DNA of 61,567 bases, filler included, from an uncultured Methanosarcinales archaeon (GTDB lineage: Archaea > Nanobdellota > Nanobdellia > Woesearchaeales > GW2011-AR9): assembly GCA_964434885.1 (NCBI GenBank). It is 12 parts of 12 records of this genome, joined end to end, with 100 filler letters (N's around TTAATTAATTAA, not from the genome) between each part and the next. Parts side by side here need not be neighbours in the genome. Positions count along the whole stretch, not along the records: positions 26,664 to 32,723 come from CAYSWQ010000054.1; 11 more parts are not named here. The stretch is one strand, 5' to 3'. The notes under the pieces are model-generated. The model did not search any database, was not told the origin of the DNA, and saw only the letters and a list, made by a program, of their open reading frames with translations. Both the position numbers and the translations under genes were made by a program. Numbering within the stretch: the first letter of the stretch is position 1; each line of letters begins with the position of its first letter. Shown here in pieces: positions 14,378 through 37,327 of this stretch.

Positions 14378-15235
14378 ATGGTTAATGATAAAAAATTTAC
14401 CCAAGAATTCGAACAAAAAGTAAAAGAAACAATCAAAAAGCACAAACTATGCAACAAAAAAGAAAAAATAATTGTAGCTTGCTCTGGGGGGAAAGATTCT
14501 ACTACTGTTCTGTATTTATTACATAAATGGGGATACAACATCGAAGCATTAATTATAGATCTTTTAATCGGAAAATGGTCAGATCAAAATTTACAAAATA
14601 TCAAACAATTCTGTCAAGAACAAAAAATCAAACTTCATGAAGTTAATCTGCGAGATGAATTTGGTTGTTCCATGTGTTTTATGCGTTCTGGAATTCAGAA
14701 AAAAGTAAAATTAAACAATTGTCTTATTTGTGGAATTATCAAGCGATGGTTATTGAACAAGAAAACAAGAGAAATGAAAGCTGATAAAATTGTTACTGGA
14801 CATAATTTAGATGATGCTGCCGAAACTTTCATGATGAATTTGTTGAAAGGAAACATGAGATTAAATATTGGACAAGGTCCCGCTACAGGCGTTATCAAAG
14901 ACAAGAAATTTGTTCCACGAATTAAACCATTATATTTTTGTCTAAATGAAGAAGTTAAAAGATATTCTGATATTAAAAAATTCCCAGTTCTTTATGATGA
15001 ATGTCCTTGTTCTGTAGAAGTATTTAGAAAAAAAATTAGGAGAAATTTAACAGAATTAGAAAAGAAAAACCCGCAAGTTAAAATTAATATAGTGAACAAT
15101 TTCATTAATTTATTGCCTTCTTTAAAGAAAAAATACAAAACTACTGAAAAATTAAATTACTGCACTGCTTGTGGTGAACCTAGTCGAAAAGATTTCTGTA
15201 AGATGTGTGAATTAGTTAAAATTTGGAAAGAATAA
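14378..15235 (+). CDS. ttuA: tRNA 2-thiolation protein, TtuA/Ncs6 (TIGR00269) family
   Basis: PP-loop SGGKDS, CLICG, GHNLDD, RIKPL, CP, C-terminal CxxCG...CKMC. Confidence 0.88.
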   Translation: MVNDKKFTQEFEQKVKETIKKHKLCNKKEKIIVACSGGKDSTTVLYLLHKWGYNIEALIIDLLIGKWSDQNLQNIKQFCQEQKIKLHEVNLRDEFGCSMCFMRSGIQKKVKLNNCLICGIIKRWLLNKKTREMKADKIVTGHNLDDAAETFMMNLLKGNMRLNIGQGPATGVIKDKKFVPRIKPLYFCLNEEVKRYSDIKKFPVLYDECPCSVEVFRKKIRRNLTELEKKNPQVKINIVNNFINLLPSLKKKYKTTEKLNYCTACGEPSRKDFCKMCELVKIWKE

Positions 15236-15242
15236 AAAAAAG

Positions 15243-15429
15243 TGTGGGGGAAGGGATTTGAACCCTCGGACTCACTAAGAGACAGGATATCTTTTTCATC
15301 GAGCAAAGCTCTCCACACTTAAGTGAAACTTAAGTCCTGCGCGTTTAGTCACTTGATTTAAGTAGACATTGCATAAGCACTGCGCCACTGTAATAAAACC
15401 AAATGTTGACCAGACTTCGCTACCCCCAC
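15243..15429 (-). tRNA. tRNA-Leu(UAA) with D-loop intron (15345-15405) and 37/38 intron (15289-15328)
   Basis: Acceptor GTGGGGG/CCCCCAC-A; CAGGA-CTTAAG|A-TCCTG; long variable arm; GGTTCAAATCC; BHB GGTC/GACT at the D-loop intron. Confidence 0.88.
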
Positions 15430-15532
15430 ATCTGATCTGCTAACAGGTGTCTCATTTTAGTGATTAACAAAGAAAAACCTCAATTGTTTTAAAAAGTTTT
15501 TGTGTTTTTTTAAGCACACCACAATAACTAAA

Positions 15533-16864
15533 TCAAAAATCATTCGGAGCTATAATTTTACGTAATCTTCTTATCCTTCTTTTCTTTCTTTCTCCAAATT
15601 GTCCTCTTAAAACTCCACTAACTTTGAGAACGTCTTCTATTGATTCAAGTTGTTGTTTAACTAATCTTTTAGTTTTAAAATCTGGAGCAAGAGGACCTTC
15701 CATCAAAGTCTCCCAACCTTCACCACCCCTATAACGGTAATGTTCAAAGAAATCTTGAAACATACAATTGAATCTATTCTCCAAAAAACGTTCTTTTAAT
15801 TCTCCATCATCTTTTAAATCTGATTCTTCCCTTCGACCCACCAGTTTTCGTATTTCGTAAGGGTTTTTTTGACAGTAATTTGCATATAATCTAAGTGACT
15901 CTTTTATTCTAGCTGCTAGCAATCTAGAGTGCCTACCTGGAAACTCTTTTGGAGAAAGTCCAATTCCTGCAAAGTATTCATTGCCCATCATTATTGATCG
16001 TTTTTCTTCTCCTGGTTTGAATTGTGACCTATAAACATTATAAATAATATTGACTAAATCGATATCGCTACCTGGACCCAATCGTACTCGAGGAAAATCA
16101 ATAACTCTTATTTTTTCTTCAGTAGGAATATAAAATATGTTTTGAGGTTTTGCTTCTGCCCAAACAAAACTGGCTTCGTTGTTTGTTAAATTTAGATCTC
16201 TTTCAATAATTTCTTCAACTTCAGTTTTAAGATCTATTCCTCTAGTATCTAGGAATCTAGAAACTTGTGTACGAATTTTTTTAGGATTCAAATCTTGGTG
16301 ATTGATCCCCCGATCTGTCAAATAATCTTCAAAATCTGTACTTTCGTAATAAATGATGGCTTGAAAATAATTTAACCATCTACCAACTTCTTCGTTTCGG
16401 TTTCTTGTTTTTAATCCAATTCTATTTTTTCTTTTCTTATTCCTGCTAGCGACTTTGATTGTTTTTAAATGTTCATTACAAACAGAATGATAAGTGGCCA
16501 AGATTTGCACCATTTGTTCAGTTAAAATGTCTGGATCAGATCCTGGTTTCAGCATAACTTCTTCAAAAGTTGGGTGACCAATATATTCCATCCTAATATT
16601 TAATGTACGGCCATCGGAATCAATATATTCGGGAACTATTCTTGGATTAATTTCTGAAAGGGCAGATAAAATGGCTGCTTCAATTTTGAAAAAATGTCTT
16701 CTTCTCTCTGAATCATAAGTAGATAAATGAACACAGTCTTCTCTCCCAAACAATTCTAAATAAGCTCCATTGGCTCGCCTTTCTGGATTATAACATTTAT
16801 AGACTAAACCATCTTCTTTATAAACAACACTTTCTCTTCCAATGCTTAGTATTTCCTTTTCCAT
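15533..16864 (-). CDS. Protein-kinase-like (APH/RIO-like fold) protein with degenerate catalytic loop
   Basis: IGRESVVYK, VYK, VPEY, MEYI, WAEAKPQNI, VIDF. Confidence 0.65.
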   Translation of the reverse strand: MEKEILSIGRESVVYKEDGLVYKCYNPERRANGAYLELFGREDCVHLSTYDSERRRHFFKIEAAILSALSEINPRIVPEYIDSDGRTLNIRMEYIGHPTFEEVMLKPGSDPDILTEQMVQILATYHSVCNEHLKTIKVASRNKKRKNRIGLKTRNRNEEVGRWLNYFQAIIYYESTDFEDYLTDRGINHQDLNPKKIRTQVSRFLDTRGIDLKTEVEEIIERDLNLTNNEASFVWAEAKPQNIFYIPTEEKIRVIDFPRVRLGPGSDIDLVNIIYNVYRSQFKPGEEKRSIMMGNEYFAGIGLSPKEFPGRHSRLLAARIKESLRLYANYCQKNPYEIRKLVGRREESDLKDDGELKERFLENRFNCMFQDFFEHYRYRGGEGWETLMEGPLAPDFKTKRLVKQQLESIEDVLKVSGVLRGQFGERKKRRIRRLRKIIAPNDF

Positions 16865-21576: not shown

Positions 21577-22233
21577 TTACAACCCATATTTTTTTATTTG
21601 GGTTTTGAGCCAATTCCTAATCATATATTCTGGTCCTGGTTGTACTTCTCGATACCAAGGTGCATTGCTAGCAAAACCAATTCCTGGATTAGTAGAAGAA
21701 TTAAATTCTAAAAAAGAATAAGGCTTACTTGAGGAACTTCGAAATACAATATCTGGTGTAAGTATCAAATCATATTTTCCGGTTTTCGAATTCTTTAATG
21801 TCAATTTCATGTCAGTATTAACGTTTACTTGAAAATTAGCATTAGTTAATTCATTTACTAATACATCAATCCCATCCTTTTCAGTCTGGATATTTTTTTT
21901 GGAGAGTTTAGTATCTGGCCATGGCGTAAAATCTGGCCATTGTGGTTTATCAGGTAATGAAACCACATCTAGAGTAGGTACTTTTCCATCTAGTTGAGGA
22001 GGTTTATACTTACCAACGCCACAACAACAGGCAATATCAAACATAGTTGTACATTCTCGATAATTATTACGATGAGCATATTCTCCTGCATTACTCAGTT
22101 CTTCAATAGTTAATACAACACATTCATCAGAAGAATAAGGAACAATTCTACATTTAGTATTGGTTTCAGTTGTACAATTAATATGAACTGCTGCTAACCC
22201 TGCCAATAACAATTTACCTATTTTCATTTTCAA
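21577..22233 (-). CDS. Hypothetical secreted protein or lipoprotein overlapping the Rhs gene end
   Basis: MKMKIGKLLLAGLAAVHINC signal; Cys-rich N-terminal half. Confidence 0.6.
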   Translation of the reverse strand: MKMKIGKLLLAGLAAVHINCTTETNTKCRIVPYSSDECVVLTIEELSNAGEYAHRNNYRECTTMFDIACCCGVGKYKPPQLDGKVPTLDVVSLPDKPQWPDFTPWPDTKLSKKNIQTEKDGIDVLVNELTNANFQVNVNTDMKLTLKNSKTGKYDLILTPDIVFRSSSSKPYSFLEFNSSTNPGIGFASNAPWYREVQPGPEYMIRNWLKTQIKKYGL

Positions 22234-25200
22234 TCACATAAAAACCATCGTCATTATCATCATACCATTCATCATCAGCATTATAAACCACCCAACCTTC
22301 TTCTGGTTCAAAATCATCTTCACTATGTCTACTCCATTCTTCTTCATCAGCATTATAAACCATCCACCTTTCGTCTCTTTCTGTTTCCCCACTCCTTCTC
22401 CAATCCCTCTCTGGTTCAAAATCATGTATTTCTTCTTCATCAGAATTATGAATTATCCAATCTTCTCTCTCTGTTCTACTCCATTCTTCTTCCAACTCAA
22501 AATCTATTTCACGTTCTTCTCTTTCTATCTCTTCCATTCTTCTCCACTCTTCCTCTCTTTCAAAATCATTTCTTTCTTCTGAATCAACATCCCTATGTTC
22601 CTCTTCACGCCACCCATCAGCGTTATAAACCATCCACCCTTCTTCTGGTTCAAAATCATCCTTACTATGTCTTTCTTCAACTTCTCTACGTTCTCCTTCA
22701 TGCCATTCATCTTCAACATGCCTTTCTTCCAGATCTCTTTCTCTATTCTCACGATCGCAATCTCGACACTCAACCTCTCTTAAGTTTTCTTTTTCAATAT
22801 TAATGAGATCAGATCTAACTTGGCCAGTAAGTATACTTTCCCTCTCTGAATCTGAATCAATTATTTGGTCATTTACTGGTGGGTTTTTAGTTGGTTTTGT
22901 ACACAACTGAGTATTGAAATAACCTTTGTTATCAATCTCATTAGTTTCTGGAATCTTATTATTTGGATCTGCTCTAAATTCTATGTATTTGGGACAATTA
23001 TAGAAAAAGATTGGATAAACAATATTAATTTTATTTGGTCCTAATTCTTTTATCGGAGTGGTTCCACTCTCTGCCAAAACCTTGTTCTGATCATCCTTAA
23101 CTACCCATTCCACATCTCTTGCTACTCCAGTGCCTTTGTTTCTAATAATAAACTCAAAAACAGCCAATCCACCTTTGTTCACAACCTTGCTAGACAATTT
23201 TACTGGATGATCAACATCCAGATTCACTGGTAATTTTGGCACACATTTATTGCTAACACATTTCTGATCAGATAGACAACTTGGATTATTATAGGCACAT
23301 CCAGTACTCTTTACACAAACATTATTCACACAACCATATCCACTACCACAACTTGGATTATTATATTTACATCCTTTCTTCTTTTCGCATTTATTATTCA
23401 CACAAATTTCACTACTGGAACAACTAGGATTACCATAACTACATCCAGTCTTCAACACACACTTATTATTCACACAATTATAATTAGACCCACNNNNNNN
23501 NNNNNNNNNNNNNNNNNNNNNNNNNNNNNNNNNNNNNNNNNNNNNNNNNNNNNNNNNNNNNNNNNNNNNNNNNNNNNNNNNNNNNNNNNNNNNACTAGGA
23601 TTATTATAAGAACAACCAGTCTTCAACACACACTTATTATTCACACAATTATAATTACTTCCACAAACTGGATTATTGTATGCACACCCTTTCTTCAGTA
23701 CACATTGATTATTAACACATTGATAATTCCCAGTACATTTGGGATTACCATAGCTACATCCAGTCTTCAACACACACTTATTATTCACACAATTATAATT
23801 AGACCCACAACTAGGATTATTATAAGAACAACCAGTCTTCAACACACACTTATTATTCACACAAGTTTCACTACTGGAACAACTTGGATTACCATAGCTA
23901 CAACCTGTCTTCTTTACACAGACATTATTCACACAACCATACCCACTACCACAACTTGGATTATTATAAGCACATCCCAATTTCAACGGAGCTGAAACAC
24001 TGCTCGGAGAATGCGCTGGTTTCCCAGAATAAGAAAACCAATATGCCGCATTATTTATTTTTGCCAGTATAATATTTCCAATATTGTCATAATAATAACT
24101 AGCCGTAAATCCATTTTTAGAAGAAACTTTTTTGACTGATGAAAGGCGATCAAATTGATCATAATCCATTGAATAAGTAGCCCCATTAATAGTATCACTT
24201 ATTCCTTTGACATTACCAACTTTATCATAAACATAACCGAGATTTTGTTTGCTAGACGTCTTAATATTATTCAACCTATAATTCTTATAATCATAACTGA
24301 AAACAGAAGTCAAAAAATTGCCATAACTTCTTGACCATATCTGCCCAGCTTCGTTATAATCTATATTATTAACTATCCCTGATATTTTATCTAATTTATT
24401 ACTCTTATCATAATAATAATTTATCTTTTCACCAGTTGGTAAAGTTTTTACTTTCAAATTATCTAGTGAATTATAAAGATAACTTGTTTTAAATTTTTGA
24501 CCATCAATTATCTTCTCTTCACTAATTTTTCTCAATCTTTGATCATATTTGTAGTTAGTAGTTAAATGAGGGGTTTTTACTTGAGAGAGAGTTCCCTTTA
24601 CTCCTTGATCATAAACAAAAGTAATGGTGCCACTAGAAGAAGATTTTTTAGTCATACGATTCAACTTATCATAAGTCATGGTGATTTTATTTCCATTAGC
24701 ATCCTTCTGTTCAATTAAATTACCAACTGAATCATAAGTATAATACCATTTACCTAAATCTGGATCATCCATTTTAATTTGCTGACCTAACCCATCATAA
24801 TCAAAATAAAAATTAGTTTTGTACTGGTTAATCTTAGTTAATTTATCATCTGCTCTATATTGGTAGGAAGTTATATAATTGCCATTCTTACCTACTTTGA
24901 TTATATTTCCATGAGCATCAAAAGTTATTGTTTTTTGATGACCATTTTCATTATTCACATACATTTCCCAAGGAGGAAAATTAATTTCCTTACTAGTTCC
25001 GTCCGGATTGGTTATTTTTGTAATTCGACTTTTGTGGTCATAAGAATACTTGCGATTTAATGTTGATCCAACTGAAGAAAAAGAATTACTATATGTATAC
25101 AAAAGTGGGTTTTCTTCTTGCTTAACTCTTCCTAAGCCATCATGATAGAAATTCTGAATAACTTGCTTATTATTTTCTTTTTCAGTTTTTAGTTGTATTT

Positions 25201-26563
25201 TATTTCCAAAACCATCATAGAAATAATGAGAATCATAAGTTCCAATTTGATTTGGTTCTTCTCTCTGCTTAATTTTTATTCCTTCTGGAGCAGTACCATC
25301 AAAAGAATATTCGATTACTTCAGTTGGGTAAGATTGACCATCATAAGGTCTAGTAGTGCTAATTTTTCGCCCAAAAGAATCATATTTATGGATAGTCACA
25401 TAATTATTAGGATCCGTTTCCCATAACACATTACCTGTCCCCAAATCATATTTGACATAACTATTTTGTCCAAGTGCATTAGTGCTCTTAATCGGAAAAG
25501 TATGGGATGAATCATAATAATAATGTGTTGGATTGCCTCGACCATCGGTTTCTTTAATTAAGTTACCATAAGAATCATAATTATAACTAGTTGTTTTGTA
25601 TTTACTTCCAACAATCCATTCCTCTGTTTTTGTTAAATCTCCTTTAGTTGGAGCCGACCCATACCATTGGCCATCATAATTATATTTAGTTTCCTTGATT
25701 ATATAATTATTACTATCTTTAAGATTGTATTTTTTTGGCTTATCTACTACCCAATTATTAATATTATAAGAATATTCATAGTAATTTTTTTTGTCATCTT
25801 GCCCATTAGTAGTATCTCCTTTTTCATGAATTAAAATAGGATTGCCATAATTGTCATAAGAATAACTAGTTTCTTTATTTTTTTTGATGTTATTGTAACC
25901 TTCTGTTATTGTTTTCTTAATTTTGTCTAGGGTGACTATATAATAACCATTCTGTTTTTTAGAACTCCACACATTCTCTATTTTTTGAATAAAAAAAGTG
26001 TTGATATTGTACATTTTTGTCTCTATTTCTTTCCCTTTTCTACTATCATCTTGGTGGAACCAATGTTTTATTTTGGTTTTATCTGGTCCAATTTCTTCTA
26101 CATAATTAAAACCCCTAAATTCTTTATCTTGATAATCGTAGAAACCATCACCATAATTATAAGTATGTTTTCCTGTGGCTTGACGAAGACCCAACATCCC
26201 ATTATCTTTAGTTACTGAACTAACTACCCATCCACTAAAAGGTAAATCACTAATACTATCTGGTCCAGTGTTATCTAGGTTGGCTATTTTGTAATAATCG
26301 ATAATGGTTTTACCACCAAAAGTGTTTTTGATCTCTTTTAGCAAATATGCTTTAGAGGCCTTATTCAACCAAGTACTCCTATCACTGCTAGTCTTCCCTT
26401 TAATTATATCTACTGCCCCATCACTATTGATATCAACTAATTTTGATTCGAATTTATCTAGGTAAACACCGCTTGGTAAAGACCACTGGTTATCAAGCGA
26501 CCAACCTTACCCTTTATTAATCCAACTTACACCAGTTGATCCTTTGGCATGTACAAAATCAAC
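22214..26563 (-). CDS. Large Rhs/YD-repeat surface protein (FG-GAP/TcB-mid-like, YD repeats, Cys repeats, CARDB, acidic tail); 5' truncated, in-frame TAA at 26507-26509
   Basis: LVDINSDGAVDII, EFRGFNYVE, many YxYDxxG repeats, DPDLG, ADPNNKIPETNEIDN. Confidence 0.85.
22240..22760 (-). repeat. Acidic low-complexity repeats (DFE[PRL]E; W[MVI][VI][YH]N[AS]D)
   Basis: Seen in the translation; CCTTCTTCTGGTTCAAAATCATC occurs twice in DNA. Confidence 0.8.
23238..23977 (-). repeat. 72-bp (24-aa) Cys-rich tandem repeats GC[SAK]Y[NG]NP.C.....CVNN.C...
   Basis: About 9 units visible around an N gap at 23494-23593. Confidence 0.92.
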
Positions 26564-26663
26564 NNNNNNNNNNNNNNNNNNNNNNNNNNNNNNNNNNNNN
26601 NNNNNNNTTAATTAATTAANNNNNNNNNNNNNNNNNNNNNNNNNNNNNNNNNNNNNNNNNNNN

Positions 26664-26916
26664 GATTGATTGGACTAGTAGAAAGTAAATTTATTAATTC
26701 ACCTACATTAATCCAGTTTTCTAAATATCTTCGACTAACTCGAGCAAAATTTCCTACTTTGTTTAAAGGATAAGGGTCAGAAAAAGAGTAAGGGCTGATT
26801 ATTTCTTGGTAGGCGGAATGATGGCCTTTTGTTCCAAAAAGAATGTGGTTGTAGATTGTTCTAACACAAGCATCAATTCCTTCAGTGTTTCTAAATTCTA
26901 ATGTGGGTTGTTTCAT
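26664..26916 (-). CDS. Hypothetical protein (3' truncated)
   Basis: MKQPTLEFRNTEG... starts one base after the probable stop of the upstream gene. Confidence 0.55.
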
Positions 26917-26917
26917 T

Positions 26918-28772
26918 TTAATATATTCTACTAACTGCAATAACAGAATTATTGTTATTGTAAACNNNNNNNNNNNNNNNAGCCAACTAGATTTATTATT
27001 CGATTGAACTCGGTTTCGATAAGAGGTTTAGAATCAATTACCCAAAGAGCAGGGTTTAAAGGAGATCTTTCTTTAGTTAGGAAAAAAGCACTAATAATTT
27101 GATTATCCAAAATATAAATTGGTTCTGGATGAATTAGATGTTCTGGAGAAAGTTGATGGCCATTTAAAACTCCTTGTTTTAGGAATTCTTGAGAATCTGG
27201 TTGTTGATAATAACGAATATCTTTTTGAGAATCTCCTTCTGTGAGAATTAAGTCAGGTTTATTTCTTATTTTTTCACCTTCTCTTCTTATTAAAATATCT
27301 CTAAGATTAGCATAAATAGTTTGATCACTAGTAAGATTGAAAGGAGTTCCTCCAAATAAAGTAAATAAAACTTGACGATCTTCGATAGTGGTTTGGACTT
27401 CTTGAAAATGTGATTGGTTTAGTGTTAATAAGTCCCAAAAACGAAACTCAGGAAGACTAATATCTGATCTGATACAATTGATTAAAGCAGCTCTAATCGC
27501 TTCTAAGTTAATATCTGTTAATAACATAGTAACATCATAACCGAGAGCAGTTAATTCATTGTAACAGATTATTTCTTTATTTGCTGGTCCACATCCCCCT
27601 CCAATAATAATAATTTCATTCTCTAAACTTTTTTCCTGATGTAATCTTTGAATTACTTGTTGATAATTAGATGGTTCAAATTGTTTATCAATTAATCTTT
27701 GGTAATGTAGCATAGCTTGTTGACTAGAATAAAGATTGGCTTGTTCTGGACGTAAATCAAAACAATTTGTAATGTTTCTTTTTATTCCTAATTGGTGTGC
27801 TTCTCTAGTTAATTTTTCAGCTAAAGTCGGTTTTATTTTGATTTGAAGGATTGCTTGTAAATTAGTAGGTTTGAGGTTGTGATCTAATTGGCAAAATTTT
27901 TGACCAACTAATTTTTCTTCTTCTTGATCGGAAATACCTAATAAAACATTAGTGTACGCTTTTAAAAAATCAAGATGGTTTAATTCATCTAAAGAACAAT
28001 TTTCTTTTAACCGATCTGCAGTTTCTTGTCCGCGAATAATTTTAATTTCTTCATAATAATCTTCAATAGGGGTTGAATCATTATATTCAAAAACAGCATC
28101 TTTTACTTCCACTGAAAGCTGACCATTTAATCTAATAATATCTTTAGTTAAATCTGACAAAGTTAAATGACTAAAAGTTGGTTCGAGGTCAATTTTATAT
28201 TTAACTGCGTTTTGAATTGTTCTCATCAGATTATGAAATTGACGGGTTAATTTATCATGAATTACATATTTACCCGAGACGTCAATAGAATGAATAACTT
28301 GTCCCAGTAAACCAACTAATTCTTCAGGTGGGTCTTGTAAGTTTTTTAATCCGGAAATAACTTTGGGAAAAGATCCTAAGAATGCTTTTTTTCTAAAGAT
28401 TATGCCTAGTTCGTAGAGATGTTCGTTATGACATTGTTCATGGAAATCAATAACTTCATTAGCAATATCTCGGAATTGTTCATATCTAACCATGTAAGAA
28501 CAATCTAGCATGGTTTGATTTATTTCATTGAGATTTTCTCTTACTTTTTTAGGAGCTTGAACTGCTTTGAGAATTGTGGTGAATGAAGTTAAAACATCAG
28601 CAACCCATTCGTTTGATTTATCTTTCCAACTTTCAAATAATTCATAAGCCCAATCTACTCCTTCTGGATGAGTTGATCTTAATTCTTCTAGTTTATTAGT
28701 AAAATTTTTAGGTAAAGGTTGTAAACTAGAATGAATGAGTGCTTCAATTCCTCGCTGACTACCCATATGCAT
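26918..28772 (-). CDS. Large protein with C-terminal EgtD-like (Methyltransf_33) SAM-dependent methyltransferase domain
   Basis: IIGGGCGPANKE, LLTDIN, LFGGTPFNL, LTEGD; probable true end VYNNNNSVIAVSRIY* lies past the N gap at 26966-26980. Confidence 0.62.
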
Positions 28773-28783
28773 TTTTGTTTAAC

Positions 28784-28794
28784 TTTAGCGAGGT
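28784..28794. promoter_or_regulatory. TTTAGCGAGGT motif copy 1 (11 nt upstream of the methyltransferase ATG)
   Basis: Identical copies at 28998-29008 and 31682-31692. Confidence 0.6.
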
Positions 28795-28795
28795 A

Positions 28796-28945
28796 TTAAG
28801 ATGAATTATGAGTTTCGAAAGGGAGTGCTAATAACCAAGGTTGTTGTTGTTTTGGCATAATTGGAGTTTGTATCTTTTGACATGATGGAGACCAAACTCT
28901 GATCTTCATTTGCCAGGAAATGATTTCTTTGAGGGTGTTTTCCAT
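28796..28945 (-). CDS. Small leaderless ORF (49 aa), possible leader peptide
   Basis: MENTLKEIISWQMKIRVWSPSCQKIQTPIMPKQQQPWLLALPFETHNSS*; TATATAAA about 20-27 nt upstream. Confidence 0.45.
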   Translation of the reverse strand: MENTLKEIISWQMKIRVWSPSCQKIQTPIMPKQQQPWLLALPFETHNSS

Positions 28946-28977
28946 TTTGAATTAACCAAAAAATTTATATATTTCTT

Positions 28978-29050
28978 AACCTCCTAAAGTGTTAACCTTT
29001 AGCGAGGTTTGGTTGGGAGGAGGAACTTGTTTCTCCTTCCTACCTTTTCT
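28978..29050 (+). ncRNA. Candidate structured small RNA: two tandem hairpins plus U-tract, containing motif copy 2
   Basis: AACCTCCTAAAG/CTTTAGCGAGGTT, then GGTTGGGAGGAGGAA-CTTG-TTTCTCCTTCCTACC (14 of 15 pairs, 2 G-U on + strand), then TTTT. Confidence 0.5.
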
Positions 29051-29192
29051 GCTATTGTTATCTGTAGAAGTTAATAATGCTCAGGATTAAAAGTTTGACT
29101 ATATCTAACTAGTGGAAGAGAAAGAATATAAATCTTTTTAATATATTTTTTATCTATTTGCAGAATCGAGAGGGGTTGTTGGTATTTTGGGA

Positions 29193-29498
29193 ATGAAGTT
29201 TAGGGATTTTGTAAATAAATCAAACTATTATTTTGTAAATAAAAGACCCTTATTTTATACTTCTTCTTTCATTGGTAAAAGTGGTTTGGCAACCGGATTT
29301 AATGCTGCATTAACAAGTAAAGCTACGAATGATTTGGATCCTTTTAAATTAGATGAAGTTGGAGATAAATTTCTAGAACGAGGTAAAGAATATCTTATTT
29401 GTCAAAACGATGTTGGTAGAATATCTCACTGTAATCTTTTAGTTTCATCAAACAATCTCTTTAACTACTTTAGTTGTATTAATTTAAGACGAATGTAA
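29193..29498 (+). CDS. Hypothetical protein
   Basis: 101-aa ORF; no motif. Confidence 0.45.
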   Translation: MKFRDFVNKSNYYFVNKRPLFYTSSFIGKSGLATGFNAALTSKATNDLDPFKLDEVGDKFLERGKEYLICQNDVGRISHCNLLVSSNNLFNYFSCINLRRM

Positions 29499-29509
29499 AA
29501 TCAACTTAG

Positions 29510-30196
29510 TTAGAGGTTCTTTCGTTTAATTAACAATTGAACAAAATCTTTTTTTAATCTTTTCGCAACAACACATTTTTCCTTATGTTTTTTGGGGTAT
29601 TCAGGTCTGAGTGGGCCGGGGATTATTACAATTTCTTCTTCATATCCAGACACCCAAGAGTAGATTGAATGCAAAACCCCAGTACCTGGTTTTGGTTGCG
29701 GAGGTACAAAATGATTAATAAAAGTAAGAATCTGATTGATTGTTCTAATAAAAGTTATACTCAGTCTCTCTATTTGCTCATCTCCTTCTCTGTAACCTTG
29801 GTGAATCTCTATTTGTTTTTTAAACTCTTCTTCCAACAATAAAGCTTTTTCAAATTCTTTTTTTGCTTTCAATAGTAAGATAATACATTGCTCTTCTTGC
29901 CAAACTCTATTTCTCCAAACTCCATCCTCATCTTGATAAAAATTATATTTTTCATCACCATTTACCGTATGATAAATAAGTTTTTCATGTGTGGGGATAT
30001 CTTCTTCCTCAATAAAATGAAAATGGTCGCCCCCAAGATGTTTTTTTATGTATCTAGCAATGTCTAGGTCATTAAAATCCGTAAGTTTAGCTTCAGTTAA
30101 GTTTTTCACTCCATTTTTAATACAAATAAATTCTCCTGCTTCTTCTTTCCATAATTTTTTTTCAAAGGCTTCTTGTTCTTCTTCAGTTCTGACCAT
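29510..30196 (-). CDS. Hypothetical protein
   Basis: 228-aa ORF; TTTATTTA about 25 nt upstream. Confidence 0.7.
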   Translation of the reverse strand: MVRTEEEQEAFEKKLWKEEAGEFICIKNGVKNLTEAKLTDFNDLDIARYIKKHLGGDHFHFIEEEDIPTHEKLIYHTVNGDEKYNFYQDEDGVWRNRVWQEEQCIILLLKAKKEFEKALLLEEEFKKQIEIHQGYREGDEQIERLSITFIRTINQILTFINHFVPPQPKPGTGVLHSIYSWVSGYEEEIVIIPGPLRPEYPKKHKEKCVVAKRLKKDFVQLLIKRKNL

Positions 30197-30230
30197 AATT
30201 GGATTAAACCAAACTAATAAATAAAGCTTT

Positions 30231-30291
30231 CCTAAAAACCTCCGTTTATTTTATTCTGATATTTTCCGAACAAATAGGTGGTTTTTATAGG
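30231..30291. repeat. Imperfect inverted repeat downstream of the AAA ATPase
   Basis: TAAAAACCTCC (30233-30243) / GGTGGTTTTTA (30277-30287), one mismatch; inner TATTT/AAATA. Confidence 0.45.
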
Positions 30292-30318
30292 GGAGTATAT
30301 TATTTACTAATAAAAATA

Positions 30319-31380
30319 TCAAACACCAAAGCCAATAACCTTAGGTTCCCACTCTTCTTCTTTCTCAGAGCGGTCATAAACATTTATTGCTTGCAATAAG
30401 TCTTTGTCATAGATATAGGTTTCTTCTGGTTGGATTAAGGAATTAGGGGAATCACTTTCAATAAAATATTTGATTCGGTTTAAAGAAGCAAGCTTGAGTA
30501 TTTCTGCGATGTCTGCTCCATTCATTCCTTTATCAAACATTTGGTGAGCTAAATAAGAAACATTTTCAATGTGATATATTTCCCTATCTGCTTTTTTCTC
30601 TTTAGCTTTCATTTGTTTCAAAAAGATATCTTCTACTCCTTCAAGACCAGGTTGGGGGATTTCCAAAACATAATCAAAACGACCAGCTCTTAAGATAGCT
30701 GTATCAATATATTCGATATGATTAGTAGCAGCGACAAAAATTAAGCCTTGATTACTCCCCATTCCATCCATTGTTCTTAACCAAACATTAACACAGCGAT
30801 CTAAAACACCATGAGATTCGTAGCTTCCTCTTTCGCGAAACATTTGCTCTGCCTCATCAACAAATAACATCACTGGTTTATCTGTTTCGGCATGTTTTTG
30901 TTTAGCTAAGGCCAACATCTGTTCTAAGTTCTGTTCTGCTTCTCCCACATATTTGCTAATGATTTGGGTTAAAGGTAATTCCATAAACCAACAATCTAAT
31001 TCTCTGGACATGGCTTTTGCAATCATTGTTTTCCCACAACCAGGAGGACCGTACATTAACAAACCACTGGGTGGTTCAATTCCATAAACAGAATACATTT
31101 GTGGATATTCAATGGCATAACCAAAATGTTTAATTTCATTTAAGATAGAATCTAAACCACCAATATCTTCAAAAGAAGTTTCTTCTTCACTCAAAATGAT
31201 TCCAATACCTTCTTGAACTTTTTCAATTTGTTCTAATTTTTTTTCATACAAGTTAATAATTGTCTTTTGTTCTTTGATAGTTTCTGATTGTTTTTTTAAA
31301 ATGTTAAGATATTGTTGAATAATTTCATCTTTACTTTTTTTTACTGGTAAATTTTTTCCTTCTTCAGCTCTTTCATCCAT
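30319..31380 (-). CDS. Classic-clade AAA+ ATPase with N-terminal coiled coil (CDC48/PAN-like single module)
   Basis: FEDIGGL, GPPGCGKT, SKYVGE pore loop, LFVDEAE, AATN, AILRAGRFD, C-terminal IGF. Confidence 0.92.
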   Translation of the reverse strand: MDERAEEGKNLPVKKSKDEIIQQYLNILKKQSETIKEQKTIINLYEKKLEQIEKVQEGIGIILSEEETSFEDIGGLDSILNEIKHFGYAIEYPQMYSVYGIEPPSGLLMYGPPGCGKTMIAKAMSRELDCWFMELPLTQIISKYVGEAEQNLEQMLALAKQKHAETDKPVMLFVDEAEQMFRERGSYESHGVLDRCVNVWLRTMDGMGSNQGLIFVAATNHIEYIDTAILRAGRFDYVLEIPQPGLEGVEDIFLKQMKAKEKKADREIYHIENVSYLAHQMFDKGMNGADIAEILKLASLNRIKYFIESDSPNSLIQPEETYIYDKDLLQAINVYDRSEKEEEWEPKVIGFGV

Positions 31381-31381
31381 T

Positions 31382-31681
31382 TTAATCAACCACCCTTATT
31401 TTTTTCTCTTTTCCAGAATAATAGAAAGTTCTAATTTCACCACATTGGCCCAGTATTTTTCGCGCTCTAGTTAATTGTTTTACAGCTTTGTCGTAACCAT
31501 CGTTGCTTTTGACTTCATAAATATCCCACTGGTCATTACAAATGCCAACTAAATCTAATTCTCCAGCTACTTGATTGGAATTAGGAAGAGTATATTCAAC
31601 ATTTCTAAGAATTACTTGGTAATTAGCTTTGACTTTTTCTTCTAATTCTTCAATAATTTGGTCGTGTTTAGATTTAGCCAT
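31382..31681 (-). CDS. Small PD-(D/E)XK restriction-endonuclease-like protein
   Basis: GELDLV...IYEVKS...KAVKQL. Confidence 0.75.
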   Translation of the reverse strand: MAKSKHDQIIEELEEKVKANYQVILRNVEYTLPNSNQVAGELDLVGICNDQWDIYEVKSNDGYDKAVKQLTRARKILGQCGEIRTFYYSGKEKKIRVVD

Positions 31682-31692
31682 TTTAGCGAGGT
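31682..31692. promoter_or_regulatory. TTTAGCGAGGT motif copy 3 (abuts the nuclease ATG)
   Basis: Minus strand reads ACCTCGCTAAA-ATG. Confidence 0.6.
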
Positions 31693-31695
31693 TGT

Positions 31696-31827
31696 GTTCT
31701 AAATCACATCATACAAAATAAATTCCCTTGCCAAAGGAGGCGCATTTTTTACCCGATAAGTAACTGAAAGGGTGAAAAATCCCTGCGCCGTGCAAGGTAT
31801 TTATTTTGGTTCTTTTTGATTTAGAAC
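31696..31827. ncRNA. 132-nt nested inverted repeat (rod-like RNA or structured leader candidate)
   Basis: Five stacked helices: GTTCTAAATCA/TGATTTAGAAC, CAAAATAAAT/ATTTATTTTG, CCTTGC/GCAAGG, GGCGCA/TGCGCC, TTTTTTACCC/GGGTGAAAAA. Confidence 0.65.
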
Positions 31828-31861
31828 CTAAGTTTACTAATTATAAAGAACCCTATCAATG

Positions 31862-32723
31862 CTACTTGGGGTGGCCAGGGACAGGGTTCTGTTTCTTTTC
31901 AGTTGCTGTTTTTTTCTTCTCTGCTACCATTTTAATGATTTCATCAGCATGTCTGATAGTGTGATCGGCAATAGATATTATTTCATTGGAAGGAACAGCC
32001 ATTACTAATTCAGAATTAAGTCCTCGACCATTCAAAATATAAGCTCGAACTAAACCCATCCACACATATTTGTTTCCTCGTTTAGCAAAAAAGGGCCCTC
32101 CAGAATTACCTTGCATAATGCGAACACTTAAGATATTAGTTTTAATTCCTCGGAAATTACGCAAAGGATTACTAACTACTCCTTTAGTCATAGCTTTGAA
32201 CATTCCACCAGGAAAACCAGCAACATATATTTCTTCTCCATATTTCAAACTACTAGAATCTCCAAAATATGAATTACCTAAAACATTAATTTTTTGTTTA
32301 GTTCTTAATACTGCTAGATCTTTAATTGGGTCTTCGTAAACCAATTCAAGTTTGATATCATCGCTAGTGTCTTGATCAAATTTGGAATCAATAATTGAAG
32401 TTAAAGTTTTTCCTCGATGAAAAACCAATGGGCCATAACGATGTTTTTTCCCACCTAAAACATGGCGATTAGTAATTAAATAATAATATTCTCCTGCTTT
32501 TCGATAGCCAAAGCCGGAACCTAAAAAACTTTTTTGTAAATTTAAACCTTCTTTGGTTTTATATTCTGCCTTCACCCTAAGACAATAGGAAGTATCAATT
32601 AATTGGTCTAACGAATTAGCTTGGTGGTTACCTTGTAACATGATTCTATTTTTTTCATGGTACTCTTGTGGTTTAATGACAGAACAACAACTGCTAGCTC
32701 CAAGTAAACTAGCAGCAGCAATA
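31862..32723 (-). CDS. Trypsin-like serine protease, probable lipoprotein (5' truncated)
   Basis: GSGF, ITNRHV, DLAVL, GNSGGP; frame extends upstream as IAAASLLGASSCC. Confidence 0.88.
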
Positions 32724-32823
32724 NNNNNNNNNNNNNNNNNNNNNNNNNNNNNNNNNNNNNNNNNNNNTTAATTAATTAANNNNNNNNNNNNNNNNNNNNN
32801 NNNNNNNNNNNNNNNNNNNNNNN

Positions 32824-33122
32824 TAAAAGCTTTAGCCTTATTTGGGATTTATCTTTTAGTGAGGGTAGGAGTAATTTTCTTTGTATTTAGAGGAATTAAA
32901 GAAAGAAAATTCAAAGAAAAGATCTTTATGTCTTTGAACTCATCTAAAGGGGTAGCCGTAGCCACCGTAGTTTTTTTGCTAGTGGCTCAAGGTATTGGTG
33001 GTAAAAGCTTGATTGATTTAGGAGTATTATTCATCTTGTATTCATTGATACTTAGCACCATAATTGCTAAAAGTAATAGGTACTTTTTAAAATTTAAAAA
33101 ACCAACCTCTTCTACGAAATGA
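32824..33122 (+). CDS. Cation:proton antiporter C-terminal fragment
   Basis: LLVRV...SKGVAVATVV, TM-rich; may be the 3' end of the gene begun at 19384. Confidence 0.6.
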
Positions 33123-34366
33123 TACTGGAAACTGCGTTATTAAAAAATTTTTTAGTTGCCTTAGCACTAGGAGCATTAATTGGTTTGGAAAGAGAGTATT
33201 CTCAATACAAAGGCAAATACAAATCTTTTGCTGGAATTAGAACTTTTCCTTTAATTGCCTTGTGTGGTAGTTTAATTGCTTATCTGGGTAAGATAGTTTC
33301 GGTTTGGATTTTAATTGTTGGAACTTTAATTTTTTCCGGATTGATTATTGCTGCTTATTATTCTTCTTCTGTTAAATCAAAATATCATGGCATTACCACC
33401 GCTTTAGCTGCGCTAATGGCTTTTATTTTAGGAATAATTACCATCCATGGTCCGATGATTTTAGCAGTTTTAGTTGGTATCGTGGTGGCTGTCTTATTAT
33501 ATGCTAAAAATTTTCTTCATCATTTTGCTAAGAAAATAAAAAAAGAAGAGTTAGTAGATACCTTAAAATTCGCAGTTATTGCTTTTGTAATTCTTCCTTT
33601 TCTACCTAACCAAGGATATGGCCCACATCAAATCTTTAACCCTTTTATTATTTGGTTAATGGTGGTTTTTATCTCTGGAATTAGTTTTGCTGGTTATATT
33701 CTGATGAAATGGTTTGGGGAAAGAGGAATAGAATTGGCCGGTGTTTTTGGAGGTTTAGTTAGTAGTACTGCAGTAACCACTAGTTTCGCAGAGCGAAGTA
33801 AGAAAGAGAAAAAAATCTTGTTTTCTTTAGTATTGGGAGTAGTTTTAGCTAACTCAATTATGTTTATTAGAATTTTGATAGAAGTATTTGTCATCAACCG
33901 AACTTTATTGAACAAAATGATTATTCCTCTTGGAATTTTATTTTTAGTTTCCTTAATTTTTTCTGGTCTTCTTTTTCGTAAAGCCATTCAAGTCAAAAAA
34001 CATAAATTAATTTTGGGCTCTCCATTTACATTAAAACCTGCTCTGAAATTTGGTTTATTTTTTGCTGTAATTTTAGCTTTAGTTAAATTAGCTGATGTTT
34101 ATTTATCTACCAAAGGAGTATACTTAGTTAGTTTCATTTCTGGTTTTGCTGATGTAGATGCCATTACTGTCTCTTTATCTCAATTAGCTAAAAAAGATTT
34201 GGCTATGGCAATTGCTCAAAAAGGAATCTTAATCGCTGCCCTAACCAATGTTGCTGTCAAGGGAGGAATCGCTTATTTCTTCGGCTCTAAAGAATTTGGT
34301 AGAATTGTTTTAGCCCTCTACTTTGTTTTAATCTTGATTGGCGCAGGGGTTATTTGGTTGTTTTAA
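33119..34366 (+). CDS. MgtC/SapB family protein with DUF4010
   Basis: IGLERE, AGIRTF, GITT, GGLVSSTAVT, DVDAIT. Confidence 0.92.
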   Translation: MILETALLKNFLVALALGALIGLEREYSQYKGKYKSFAGIRTFPLIALCGSLIAYLGKIVSVWILIVGTLIFSGLIIAAYYSSSVKSKYHGITTALAALMAFILGIITIHGPMILAVLVGIVVAVLLYAKNFLHHFAKKIKKEELVDTLKFAVIAFVILPFLPNQGYGPHQIFNPFIIWLMVVFISGISFAGYILMKWFGERGIELAGVFGGLVSSTAVTTSFAERSKKEKKILFSLVLGVVLANSIMFIRILIEVFVINRTLLNKMIIPLGILFLVSLIFSGLLFRKAIQVKKHKLILGSPFTLKPALKFGLFFAVILALVKLADVYLSTKGVYLVSFISGFADVDAITVSLSQLAKKDLAMAIAQKGILIAALTNVAVKGGIAYFFGSKEFGRIVLALYFVLILIGAGVIWLF

Positions 34367-35049: not shown

Positions 35050-35427
35050 TTATTTAACCAAAACACCATTAACAGTGTCAGCTTGACCTGGTCTAGAAGT
35101 AATTTTCACTTTTCCTAATTTAGTTTCCACAATTGCCCCTTTAGTAAGGATGTTTCGTCTAACTAAGTTTGGATTGGCTGGATTTTCTAAAACATTCACA
35201 ATTTCAGTTTTTTGGGTTTTTCCTTTAGAATCTGTAACACTAACTTCTTTTGCTGACAAAAGAACTTTCTTTTGGTTTCCCCCAATAGTTCTAATTTTTT
35301 TAACTTTCTTTTCTTTTAACAAAGTTAAAGTTGGCTTACGAGCTAATTCGTCCTTCCTTTTAGTTCTAGCTGAATGGTATCTTCCACCAGATACTTTTCT
35401 TTTAGATTTTGTTTGTGCTCTTGCCAT
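35050..35427 (-). CDS. rps8e: 30S ribosomal protein eS8
   Basis: KRKVSGG, RTIGGN, NPAN...RRNILTKGAI, ITSRPGQ. Confidence 0.97.
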   Translation of the reverse strand: MARAQTKSKRKVSGGRYHSARTKRKDELARKPTLTLLKEKKVKKIRTIGGNQKKVLLSAKEVSVTDSKGKTQKTEIVNVLENPANPNLVRRNILTKGAIVETKLGKVKITSRPGQADTVNGVLVK

Positions 35428-35461: not shown

Positions 35462-37327
35462 TTACTCTTTTTCTTTCCCATTAATCCTTTCAAAGATATT
35501 TTTCTTGCCATTCCAATCCAATGCTTCTGCTAAAACTTCTTCAATGGTCTCTACTGGAACAATCTTGATTTTCTTCGCTTTATTCTTATCCAAAACAATA
35601 TCTTTCATATTGCTTTTGGGTACAATAACCGTTTTAATGCCTGCATCTACTGCTGCTTCGACTTTACTACTTACTCCCCCAATTGGTAATACTTTCCCTC
35701 GCACTGACAATGAACCAGTCATGGCTACATCTTGTTTAATTGGAACTTCTTTCAAAGCAGAAATGATTGAAGTAGCCACCGCAATACTAGCAGAATCTCC
35801 TTCTACTCCTTCATGAGTCTGTAAAAATTGAACAAAAATATCTCTGGTTTCTTTAATATCTTCTCCAAAGTATTTCATTACGATTGCTGAAACATTTTTA
35901 ACTGCTTCTTTTGCAATCTCTCCTAGTTTTCCAGTTGCAATAATCTCAGATTTCTTACCTCCCATTGTTACTTCAGATTCAATTGGTAATAATATTCCAG
36001 AATATGCTGCTCCCGAACCAATTACTGCTAAACCATTAACTCGACCAATTCTTTTTCCTTTAGTCACAATTACTTCATATTCTTTTTTCTTTTCAATCAT
36101 ATCATCAGCCATTTGCTGTTCTAATGGTCTAGCTAATTTCTTAGCTTGTTGAACATGTCTTCTTTCTACCAAATTAGCTTTCTTTTCTTTAGCTAAATCT
36201 CCCGCTGCTCTAACTAATCCACCTAACCCCCTTAACCTTAAGGTCAGATGTCCTTTTCGATTAGCTCTTCTTCTTGCTTCTTGCAGGATTTCTAAGACTG
36301 CTTCTCGAGAGAAGTGAGGAATTTTACCTTTTTCTTTTTCCACTTCTTGAGCTACAAAACGAGCAATTTTCCTTCTGTTGTCTGGAGTATCTTTCATGGT
36401 GTCTTTCATATAAATTTCATAACCATAACCCCTAATTCTAGATCTCAAAGCAGGATGCATATTTTTGATAGTATCTACATTTCCTGCTGCAATTAAAATA
36501 AAATCACAAGGTACTGGTTCACTTCTAACCATTGAACCAGAACTTCTTTCTGATTGTCCTGTAATTGGAAATTTCTTTTCTTGTAAAGCTGATAACAATT
36601 CTTGTTGCGTTCTTGGATGTAATGTGGCAATTTCATCAATAAACAAAACTCCTTTGTTAGCTTTATGGATTAGTCCAGCAACTACTCTTAAATTAGCAGG
36701 AGTCCCTAATCCTCCACTTTGGAAAGGATCGTGTAAACAATCTCCTAATAATGCTCCAGCATGGCTACCTGTTGCATCATAAAACGGAGATTTCTTTTGA
36801 TCAAAATTATCTACTATCAATTTGGGGTTTTGAATCTTTGATTGACCCAGGTTCATTCTTGGGCCCATATTTAATAAAAATACTAGGCCTACTAAGAATA
36901 ACATTCCTCCCAGAAAAAATGCTGTAAACATCAAATCAGATTTGTATGTGTGTCTAATCCACCAAGGGGCAATCATAGCCGCAATAGCTAATATGAAAAA
37001 CAAAAAATTATAATTTTTAAACAATTGTTTTGCTTGTAATTGTGATTTTTGAACTTCTTCTCTTCCTGTACCTGCTTGAAGAGTTTTAATTAATGGCATA
37101 TTTTCATCATTTGGGTTAGGCAAAGAAATAATGTCTTGGAGTTTCTCTTTCGGCAACAATTCTGCTAAAGCTACTCCTAACATTGACTTCCCAGTACCAG
37201 GTTCTCCAATTAGTAAGATATGTCTTCTTTGGAGAGCAGTTTTATGTATTAAATCAACTGCCTCATCTTGACCAATAACTTGATCAATGACTTTTTTAGG
37301 TACTTTAATTTCTTTTGTGGTTTTCAT
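35462..37327 (-). CDS. lonB: Archaeal membrane-anchored Lon protease LonB
   Basis: GEPGTGKS, two TM helices, LFIDEI, EGDSAS, GGVSSK. Confidence 0.97.

Follow-up and report, generated by a model that had tools for sequence, protein, structure and literature searches.

What kind of system is encoded by an archaeal contig that carries a protease, a nuclease, an ATPase and a methyltransferase fusion, and in which one and the same short sequence stands before several genes? This question is raised by positions 26664-32723 of the window (the whole stretch of 61,567 nucleotides (nt) of DNA analysed here), which correspond exactly to one contig of 6060 bp, C54, of a metagenome-assembled genome (G000; 66 contigs, 1,069,348 bp, 92% complete). 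An initial annotation of this DNA had pointed to an RNA-linked, co-regulated module, an idea that comparative genomics has largely borne out, save that the RNA lies on the other strand. Our reading, which we hold to be probable, is that C54, judging from its sequence, would hold part of an accessory island that is rare, chromosomal and subject to gain and loss in small DPANN-type archaea, and that would be co-regulated by its own antisense small RNA (sRNA). Both the RNA and the island are new, and they would work by a known kind of mechanism. In silico, we observed the anatomy and conservation of the sRNA, the complementarity and positions of its boxes, and the co-occurrence and co-inheritance of the genes. 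Working labels are kept for the places where they are needed: G with three digits denotes a genome, L a fetched locus, and g193 a genus in another family, whose members have a guanine plus cytosine (GC) content of 45-53%.

As first described, this is a single contig, bounded by linkers; its open reading frames (ORFs) are nearly all on the minus strand, as are all seven protein ORFs, and none of the seven proteins matches a housekeeping family. The genes are the following:

31862-32723, minus strand: trypsin-like serine protease, predicted to be exported (PF13365, Trypsin_2); ORF open at the contig end
31382-31681, minus strand: nuc99, a PD-(D/E)xK nuclease of 99 amino acids (aa), from conserved residues and the fold modelled by AlphaFold2 (AF2)
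30319-31389, minus strand: classical AAA ATPase (PF00004) with an N-terminal coiled-coil-like region
29510-30196, minus strand: p228, an orphan protein
28796-28945, minus strand: s49, conserved, 49 aa, encoded between the sRNA locus and MT605
26918-28772, minus strand: MT605, a helical domain (about residues 1-300) fused to an EgtD-like S-adenosylmethionine (SAM) methyltransferase
26664-26916, minus strand: second methyltransferase-like protein, first 84 residues, cut by the contig end

What ties these genes together is an 11-mer, ACCTCGCTAAA, present in three exact copies on the contig, all on the minus strand (31682-31692, 28998-29008 and 28784-28794), and nowhere else in the 1,069,348 bp of G000. 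The link first noticed between the nuclease/ATPase start, the methyltransferase start and an sRNA-like element is confirmed: the contig has three exact copies and the remaining genome has none. Only two loci of the genome, C54 being one of them, contain an intergenic 11-mer (with at least four G or C) in at least three same-strand copies per contig. In 40 related genomes, the 11-mer occurs at chance level (15 matches vs. 29 for the reversed control). The elements concerned are:

31682-31692, minus strand: box 1, directly abutting the nuclease ATG (0 nt) and able to pair with the sRNA seed by complementarity
28784-28794, minus strand: box 3, 11 nt ahead of the first ATG in the methyltransferase gene
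28964-28971, plus strand: TATA box of the sRNA gene, TTTATATA, with a purine-rich stretch just before it
28993-29050, plus strand: predicted sRNA gene of about 58 nt, with the 5′ seed ACCUUUAGCGAGGUUUGGUUGGG, followed by a hairpin of 15 bp and then a U tract

The sRNA gene, on the plus strand, holds the complement of the middle 11-mer copy (28998-29008) and lies opposite to the strand that the initial annotation had implied. In each island genome, one of the box copies is embedded in a longer conserved block, which reads as this gene on the strand opposite to the island genes. Twelve sRNA loci, representing 10 distinct sequences, share the same organization: a TATA box at all 12, placed 22-25 nt before the conserved RNA start, a variable and non-conserved spacer in between, an invariant 5′ block, the hairpin and the T tract. 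A TATA box at such a distance before a short terminated transcript is the geometry of archaeal promoters. Across these 10 sequences, 94.4% of helix cells are paired, vs. 37-66% in slid registers, and the observed score combining pairing and covariation was reached by only one of 500 shuffles, with one pair changed on both sides and eight on one side. The helix is also strand-specific, with 94.4% pairing on the sRNA strand vs. 77.1% on the gene strand, because G-U pairs turn into mismatches on the opposite strand. Promoter and terminator-like 3′ end are conserved as a unit, and the conserved seed is complementary to conserved sites at the start regions of the predicted targets; on both counts the comparative evidence identifies the locus as a predicted sRNA gene.

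A covariance model (R1), built from five genomic sRNA copies, finds the RNA in a single copy in G000 (72.8 bits) and also once in G326, a member of g193; among 150 further genomes of the order no match exceeded 21.5 bits, and none in G019, G001, G013 and G075 was significant. The exact 19-mer of the seed occurs in nine metagenome contigs, seven of which hold the whole RNA (52-86 bits); the other two, where GC-rich DNA carries the 19-mer and the model finds no match, are probably due to chance. The sRNA core has no match in viral contigs. Likewise, Rfam gave no match at E ≤ 1 on the contig, and nothing beyond noise (E ≥ 1.3) at the sRNA locus of G278.

In relatives, the box was first seen in G326, by comparing shared words upstream of island genes. 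Its core, ACCUCGCUAAA, is often extended by GG or by the upstream CCAACCAA. Three of the four exact copies in the 1.6-Mb genome of G326 fall within 14 kb at the island, while the fourth spans codons 2-5 of a gene for a lipoprotein-like product. In G326 a variant of the box lies 9 nt ahead of the nuclease ATG, and the metagenome contig L194 has an exact box in the same place before the methyltransferase gene. On the g193 island contigs, the 12 box matches outside the sRNA (at most one mismatch) all have the sense orientation of the following gene and fall between about 40 nt ahead of its start and about 25 nt past it, some of them at junctions within operons. The boxed genes of g193 encode:

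protease (G326, G278); large protein (G326); AAA ATPase (G217); p174 (G326)
small protein after the AAA ATPase (G278); transglutaminase-like protein (G421, G217, G278)
helix-turn-helix (HTH) protein (G278); protein of 248-260 aa (G217, G278)

When the seed was folded against the regions from -50 to +20 nt around the 1071 gene starts of G000, the first rank went to a 272-aa gene on another contig, C41 (-32.5 kcal/mol), the third to the methyltransferase gene (-23.9) and the seventh to the nuclease gene (-21.1), the median being -10.5. The second-ranked candidate, on contig C21, has no box and pairs largely through G-U; it was treated as a false positive. The C41 gene carries a fourth box, with one mismatch, which abuts its ATG and lies within an extended similarity to the complement of the sRNA. 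The predicted operon is:

C41:6287-7998 (locus L186, outside the window): box, 272-aa phosphoesterase-like gene and three small ORFs, following a ribosomal-protein operon

The small ORFs encode 116 aa (HExxH motif; weak SprT-like/M76 matches), 81 aa and 85 aa, and a fifth box copy is cut by the end of C41. The 272-aa protein has no Pfam match; we take its motifs to be phosphoesterase-like, and in hhalign it is similar to a large g193 protein with E 6e-4 and a probability of 28%. That large protein, of about 800 aa, is encoded upstream of the AAA gene in g193 (L066:9706-12180, orthologs in L067-L069), where its gene overlaps the AAA gene start by 4 nt; its DEH, GD, GNHAD and GHTHD motifs are conserved, presumably as a metallophosphoesterase pattern, and it has no Pfam match. 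From the sequence evidence, the C41 operon probably belongs to the same island, and it may adjoin the protease end of C54.

Putting these elements together, the island core would consist of the exported trypsin-like protease, the metallophosphoesterase-like protein (here on C41), the nuclease with the adjoining classical AAA ATPase of unfoldase type, and the pair of methyltransferase-like proteins. The sRNA would be transcribed opposite to the island genes, from a promoter of its own, and its free, invariant 5′ end would pair with the boxes, which in this genome mark the nuclease-AAA operon, the methyltransferase gene and, on C41, the phosphoesterase operon. Since the boxes abut start codons or run into GGTG/GGGG sequences resembling ribosome-binding sites, pairing is expected to block initiation, and a single RNA would then set the translation of all boxed operons together. 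The most likely effect of pairing is repression, a sign that we infer from these positions. Control at translation initiation, as originally supposed, fits the placement of predicted target boxes 0-40 nt before start codons or just inside the genes. Furthermore, if the conserved block at 29110-29163 starts the s49-MT605 messenger, the leader of that messenger would be fully complementary to the sRNA, which would act both in cis and in trans.

Could the box instead be read as DNA? A transcription factor could bind it as an operator, and the conserved block of the spacer between the methyltransferase gene and p228 would then be a promoter-operator and not an RNA gene. Genes of HTH/AsnC type do lie within or beside the island in g193, G019 and G013; moreover, at some genes the box stands between a TATA-like box and the start codon, and a TATA box is part of the conserved block itself. 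Such an operator would need neither a 15-bp helix that tolerates G-U on one strand only nor a T tract, but both are conserved. Nor would it be expected at junctions inside operons, such as the 37 nt that separate the AAA gene from the large-protein gene in G217, or the junction of the AAA gene with its successor in G326 and G278, and always in the sense orientation, as are the 12 boxes of g193 and all those of G000. Neither C54 nor the vicinity of the C41 operon showed a recognisable HTH gene. Altogether, we consider an operator unlikely, though it is the strongest of the alternatives.

A less probable option, to which we give little credence, retains the box as an RNA signal that is read by a protein, either as a processing site or as a translation enhancer, the sRNA-like block being a decoy or an antisense by-product. 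The strict sense orientation of the boxes and their positions at cistron starts would suit such a signal, as would the presence in the island of nucleases whose substrate is unassigned. Nevertheless, it would leave unexplained why an invariant complement of the box is accompanied by a promoter, a hairpin and a U tract in 10 distinct sequences, and no RNA-binding domain was recognised.

It is highly improbable that the boxes are promoters of a phage-type single-subunit RNA polymerase. In its favour, the box followed by GG would match what we take to be the core of the T3 polymerase promoter in 11 of 12 places, the g193 boxes run into stretches of G, and the box always points to the next gene. 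Against it, PF00940 was found in none of G000, G326, G421, G217, G278 and G019 (the control genomes were silent too), the sRNA core is absent from viral contigs, and some boxes lie 0-11 nt from start codons.

The island reading, with its antisense sRNA, draws further support from the recurrence of the genes. That they should co-occur elsewhere was asked of the earlier proposal, and they do: AAA orthologs are present in 10 genomes besides G000, with the MT605-like (MT-like) gene on the same contig in nine and on another contig in G278. The AAA ortholog is rare, being found in four of 400 genomes, all of g193, plus G019 in the same family as G000. The small nuclease family, by contrast with this rarity, is found in 108 of 400 other genomes of the order, always as one copy, and is thus widespread; the neighbours of 31 distant nuclease homologs show no recurrent partner, the largest shared neighbour family occurring at three loci. 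Among 35 nuclease loci, the AAA ortholog adjoins the nuclease only in G019, G326 and G278, whose nucleases are among the four closest; the remaining one of these four, from G013, adjoins the protease instead. The MT-like family is rare as well, with 34 clusters at E ≤ 1e-30 among 1.84 billion representatives, and in the sample of the order it is limited to four g193 genomes, G075 and, weakly, G026.

In g193 the island extends over about 12 kb in the order protease, protein of about 800 aa, AAA ATPase, the nuclease, another small protein or both, HTH protein, a variable set of genes (transglutaminase-like, SPFH, GGDEF-like), a further HTH protein, MT-like protein and second methyltransferase-like protein. 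In G019 the same families are spread across a 39-kb contig. Within the family of G326, the sRNA is present in eight of 12 g193 genomes (one of the eight being the unpublished G425) and in none of six genomes of other genera. The MT-like gene is present in the same eight, with more distant members in three other genomes, and the AAA ortholog in seven of the eight, mostly on the same contig; of the four g193 genomes that lack sRNA, MT-like gene and AAA ortholog, two are at least 85% complete. At all six loci with enough flank on that side, the sRNA is adjoined by island genes: the MT-like gene in L188, L191, L194, G326 (L166) and G278 (L168), and the gene following it in G217 (L167). The gene order of g193 is found again in L188 and L191, as far as ribosomal protein S3Ae, and the shorter L190 and L195 show its S3Ae-side end only. 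L194 (GC 0.36) has the order seen here, that is sRNA, s49 homolog, exact box and methyltransferase gene, with 58-60% protein identity.

Searches of other material added little to this distribution. A scan of metagenome-contig proteins with the methyltransferase yielded 87 pattern stretches, none of which was confirmed, and a scan of genome contigs with alignment A2 gave a single locus, the G421 contig. Viral contigs contain 80 AAA loci, all generic (at most 158 bits) and none with a nuclease, MT-like or large-protein neighbour, and the nuclease pattern is absent from them. That the genes of C54 are unrelated neighbours on a mis-binned or chance contig, with a coincidental 11-mer, is a notion that has in its favour the short, low-coverage metagenome contig and the separate occurrence of the protease, nuclease and methyltransferase families, but it is already refuted: the GC of 0.32 fits the genome, there are three exact copies here vs. 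none in the other 1.06 Mb, and another family as well as metagenomes show the boxes, the sRNA and the gene set once more.

Several observations weigh against co-regulation of an island by its sRNA and have to be set beside this evidence. In G019 a single contig holds the protease, the AAA-nuclease pair and the two methyltransferase-like genes, with neither sRNA nor boxes, so the proteins do not need the RNA. Besides, G001 and G075 contain the MT-like gene without an AAA ortholog, and G013 the protease and nuclease with neither AAA ortholog nor MT-like gene, which makes the island modular. Covariation in the helix is thin, amounting to effectively two or three lineages with one double-sided change, and for the seven metagenome loci the invariance of the seed is in part circular, since the exact 19-mer served to find them. 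One-mismatch box counts over whole genomes are about those of the reversed-pattern control, which confines the significance of the boxes to their local clustering. The HTH proteins of the g193 island could, in addition, read the box as DNA. The sequencing runs listed for C54 include no RNA run and hence provide no transcript evidence. As for the role of the proteins, it is a guess from domain types.

With this reservation, a conflict or DNA-handling module, in which nucleases, a protease and an unfoldase would be kept silent until needed, is a role that we put forward tentatively. Equally tentative is the idea of a portable RNA master switch, in which one antisense sRNA would travel with the island across archaeal families whose GC contents range from 31 to 53%, identical boxes at many starts silencing potentially self-harmful enzymes, namely two nucleases, the protease, the unfoldase and the methyltransferases, until their release. 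If true, no sRNA regulon would have been described in DPANN archaea before this switch, which would guard an undescribed machine for conflict or DNA processing much as type I toxin-antitoxin control does, but over several operons. To our knowledge, few archaeal small RNAs have known targets, and a literature search, confined to listings and so not proof of absence, returned no sRNA study of DPANN archaea. Here the RNA and its boxes can be read straight from genomes and are conserved across very different base compositions, thus offering seed/box pairs that are directly testable. In turn, the boxes delimit an island whose proteins fit no named system, and assign to it genes on other contigs, such as the phosphoesterase operon of C41, which makes them a handle for defining its full gene set and function.

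The closest regulatory parallel is sRNA162 of Methanosarcina mazei, for which a single-stranded region is reported to pair with a messenger and mask its ribosome-binding site, with base pairing to both a cis-encoded and a trans-encoded target (PMC3510493). The RNA predicted here would be alike in being an archaeal sRNA that pairs at the start region of messengers and possibly acts in cis and in trans; it differs in having no sequence relation to sRNA162, in its seed at the 5′ end and in its targets, which would be several operons of one accessory island with which it travels.

Type I toxin-antitoxin systems, in which a small antisense RNA encoded beside the genes that it silences pairs at the start region of the messengers of potentially harmful proteins, offer an analogy. 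In both cases the antisense RNA is encoded beside its targets (predicted ones here) and would pair at their starts. Unlike them, the island has one RNA for many boxes and several operons, with trans targets on another contig, and no small toxin was identified in it.

At the protein level, the set matches no named system and the island is most likely undescribed. In agreement with the absence of a match noted from the start, PADLOC, NCBIfam and PHROGs have no fitting model: PADLOC-DB 2.0 gave generic domain-level matches only (IetA, TRIP13, Nhi, LmuA-protease) and nothing for four of the seven proteins, and the matches in PHROGs and NCBIfam were confined to generic domains. IetAS comes closest, with a classical-type AAA protein near a serine protease, and IetA models are the best PADLOC matches of the ATPase (121 bits). 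However, the NCBIfam IetA equivalog scores 104.5 bits vs. a cut-off of 510, below generic proteasome-ATPase models (160 bits), and the protease is trypsin-like and exported, not subtilisin-like, with a nuclease gene between it and the AAA gene. Membership in IetAS was rejected on both the IetA score and the missing subtilisin-like IetS partner.

The protease passes the gathering score of PF13365 (56.8 bits vs. a cut-off of 27.6). Its N-terminus is missing at the contig end, and the first visible residues (…LLGASSCCS…) resemble the last part of a lipoprotein signal peptide; homologs with N-termini resembling signal peptides occur in the same island in G326, G421, G278, G013 and G019. In nuc99, residues D43, E56, V57 and K58 are invariant across 25 homologs (an alignment that includes one row, L060, from the unpublished genome G339). 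Its AF2 model has a pLDDT of 95.3 and a pTM of 0.86, and the recognised Foldseek matches are R2 endonuclease, AddAB, Cas4, Can2/Card1 and cap-snatching endonuclease (TM-score normalised to the query, TMq, 0.45-0.64). By modelled fold and catalytic residues alike, nuc99 is assigned to the PD-(D/E)xK superfamily. It matches no Pfam family at E ≤ 0.01, NERD (PF08378) included, and weak NERD matches appear in eight of the 25 homologs, the best at E 1.6e-5.

The AAA gene starts at TTG 31389, overlapping the nuclease gene by 8 nt, or at ATG 31380, one base past the nuclease stop. Its product scores 111.9 bits vs. the gathering score of 21.2 for PF00004, and keeps in six orthologs the motifs GPPGCGKT, FVDEAE, AATN, RAGRFD and KYVGEAE, which we take to be Walker A and B, sensor 1, arginine fingers and pore loop (KYVG being pore-loop-like). 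Identity with PAN, Cdc48, FtsH or CdvC was rejected on NCBIfam scores of 160.3 vs. 500, 152 vs. 803, 131 vs. 600 and 123 vs. 650 bits, respectively. A complex prediction for the ATPase with the nuclease scored 0.00, which counts neither way. In g193, an unrelated protein of 87-108 aa (…EDCEHV…) is encoded after the AAA gene (L067:7458-7784, L068:9340-9603, L069 around 9885-10130); it replaces the nuclease in G421 and G217 and precedes it in G278, a placement that suggests swappable small partners. In G019, genes for an Nmad3 (nucleotide-modification-associated) protein and a DUF2779/RNase H-like protein lie between the AAA-nuclease pair and the protease (L012:16266-17105 and 14461-15888), which hints at a variable, conflict-type neighbourhood.

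As to p228, it retrieved only itself among 5.8 billion cluster representatives, of which those of near length were compared, and no family in four libraries apart from a sub-threshold AMP_N match; a relation to the large g193 protein was sought and not found. The protein s49 has a 62-aa homolog in the same position in L194 (phmmer E 4.5e-17; tblastn 50% identity, E 8.5e-15). An ORF at 29187-29498 on the plus strand has no homolog anywhere and is probably not a gene.

The MT605 gene is interrupted by a 15-N gap at 26966-26980, which is filled in an identical database protein of 615 aa, P0001. The AF2 model (pLDDT 87.3) has EgtD in all of the first 12 listed Foldseek rows, with E 2e-8 to 3e-7 and a TM-score normalised to the target (TMt) of 0.59-0.68. 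Direct searches with MT605 or five full-length relatives matched no Pfam family at E ≤ 0.01, PF10017 included, and the family profile gave nothing below E 0.1 among PDB sequences. That profile does match proteins of which 11 of the 15 tested carry PF10017, and clusters with PF10017 make up 28 of the 30 atlas neighbours of MT605. Profile homology and modelled fold together place the C-terminal part, of about 300 residues, in the Methyltransf_33/EgtD-like group; the helical domain has no Pfam or PDB sequence match. The likeness to EgtD, the histidine N-alpha-methyltransferase of ergothioneine synthesis (PF10017), lies in the fold of this C-terminal part and in a glycine-rich SAM loop and an acidic residue after strand 2 that the family keeps, with the roles that we presume for them. 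Unlike EgtD, to which it is about 12% identical, MT605 is fused to a helical domain of about 300 residues, and no ergothioneine genes were seen. The second methyltransferase-like gene has its ATG one base past the MT605 stop. Its product has phmmer matches in G019, G326, G421 and G217 (E 2.5e-9 to 2.5e-5), each of 456-534 aa and encoded downstream of an MT-like gene; the G019 homolog provides a lead, and nothing more, towards a class I methyltransferase.

The initial annotation had further singled out three spacers as GC-richer and paired. Among 323 intergenic spacers of G000 of 80-800 nt (median GC 0.262, 90th percentile 0.344), ranked by their best 100-nt folding energy, with z-scores obtained separately from shuffles, this holds only in part. 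The spacers and their elements are:

31682-31861: spacer A, GC 0.356, rank 37 of 323
31714-31808, minus strand: long nested hairpin in spacer A, about 95 nt, minimum free energy -47.5 kcal/mol, z -3.67
30197-30318, minus strand: spacer B, GC 0.246 (below the median), rank 84 of 323, weak hairpin, z -2.52
28773-29186, in part: spacer C, GC 0.326, rank 9 of 323, z -2.23 over 245 nt
29110-29163, minus strand: conserved non-coding block in spacer C, with a sense-oriented TATA-like box toward s49 and the methyltransferase gene

Conservation is restricted to spacer C. The hairpin of spacer A has no Rfam match and no similarity in about 196 fetched loci, and spacer B has no similarity in any fetched locus. 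The sRNA explains C alone, A being structured and B unremarkable. A hairpin that had been proposed at the middle 11-mer (28979-29008, minus strand) is real by folding and is not conserved in relatives: it pairs the box with a downstream near-complement holding AGGAGGT, mostly within the sRNA promoter spacer, and is kept in part in L194 and absent in g193. The conserved structure of spacer C is the neighbouring hairpin, read on the opposite strand. The block at 29110-29163 is 89% identical over 54 nt to L194:262-315, where the proteins are only about 58% identical, and it may be the promoter of the s49-MT605 messenger.

Regarding the wider setting, the window strings together contigs, each about 6 kb long, by linkers of the form N44-TTAATTAATTAA-N44, which flank C54 on both sides (N runs at 26564-26663 and 32724-32823, for example), while shorter N runs in the window (100, 15 and 10 N) are gaps within scaffolds. 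As the contigs are joined artificially, gene neighbourhood is not readable across the linkers. The GC of C54 matches the remainder of G000. The contig is present at low depth, with an essentially identical sequence, in DNA runs of marine and seawater metagenomes from two studies; contigs of four such runs (two studies) are identical to it bar isolated differences, so there is no population variation with which to test the boxes. Contigs of two runs, X1 and X6, reach 559 and 806 nt past position 32723. The window contains no tRNA genes. On the neighbouring contig, a membrane protein with MgtC/DUF4010 Pfam matches is encoded at 33119-34366 (plus strand), followed by ORFs that, read by eye, are ribosomal protein S8e-like (35050-35427, minus strand) and archaeal Lon-like (35462-37327, minus strand), by which the window as a whole does hold housekeeping genes, outside C54. 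On the other adjoining contig, at 22214-26368 (minus strand), an ORF of 1384 aa has YD/RHS-like repeats, then many Cys-rich repeats of about 33 aa, broken by a 100-N gap, and a very acidic tail; from its sequence, it looks like a protein of the surface or toxin-delivery type.

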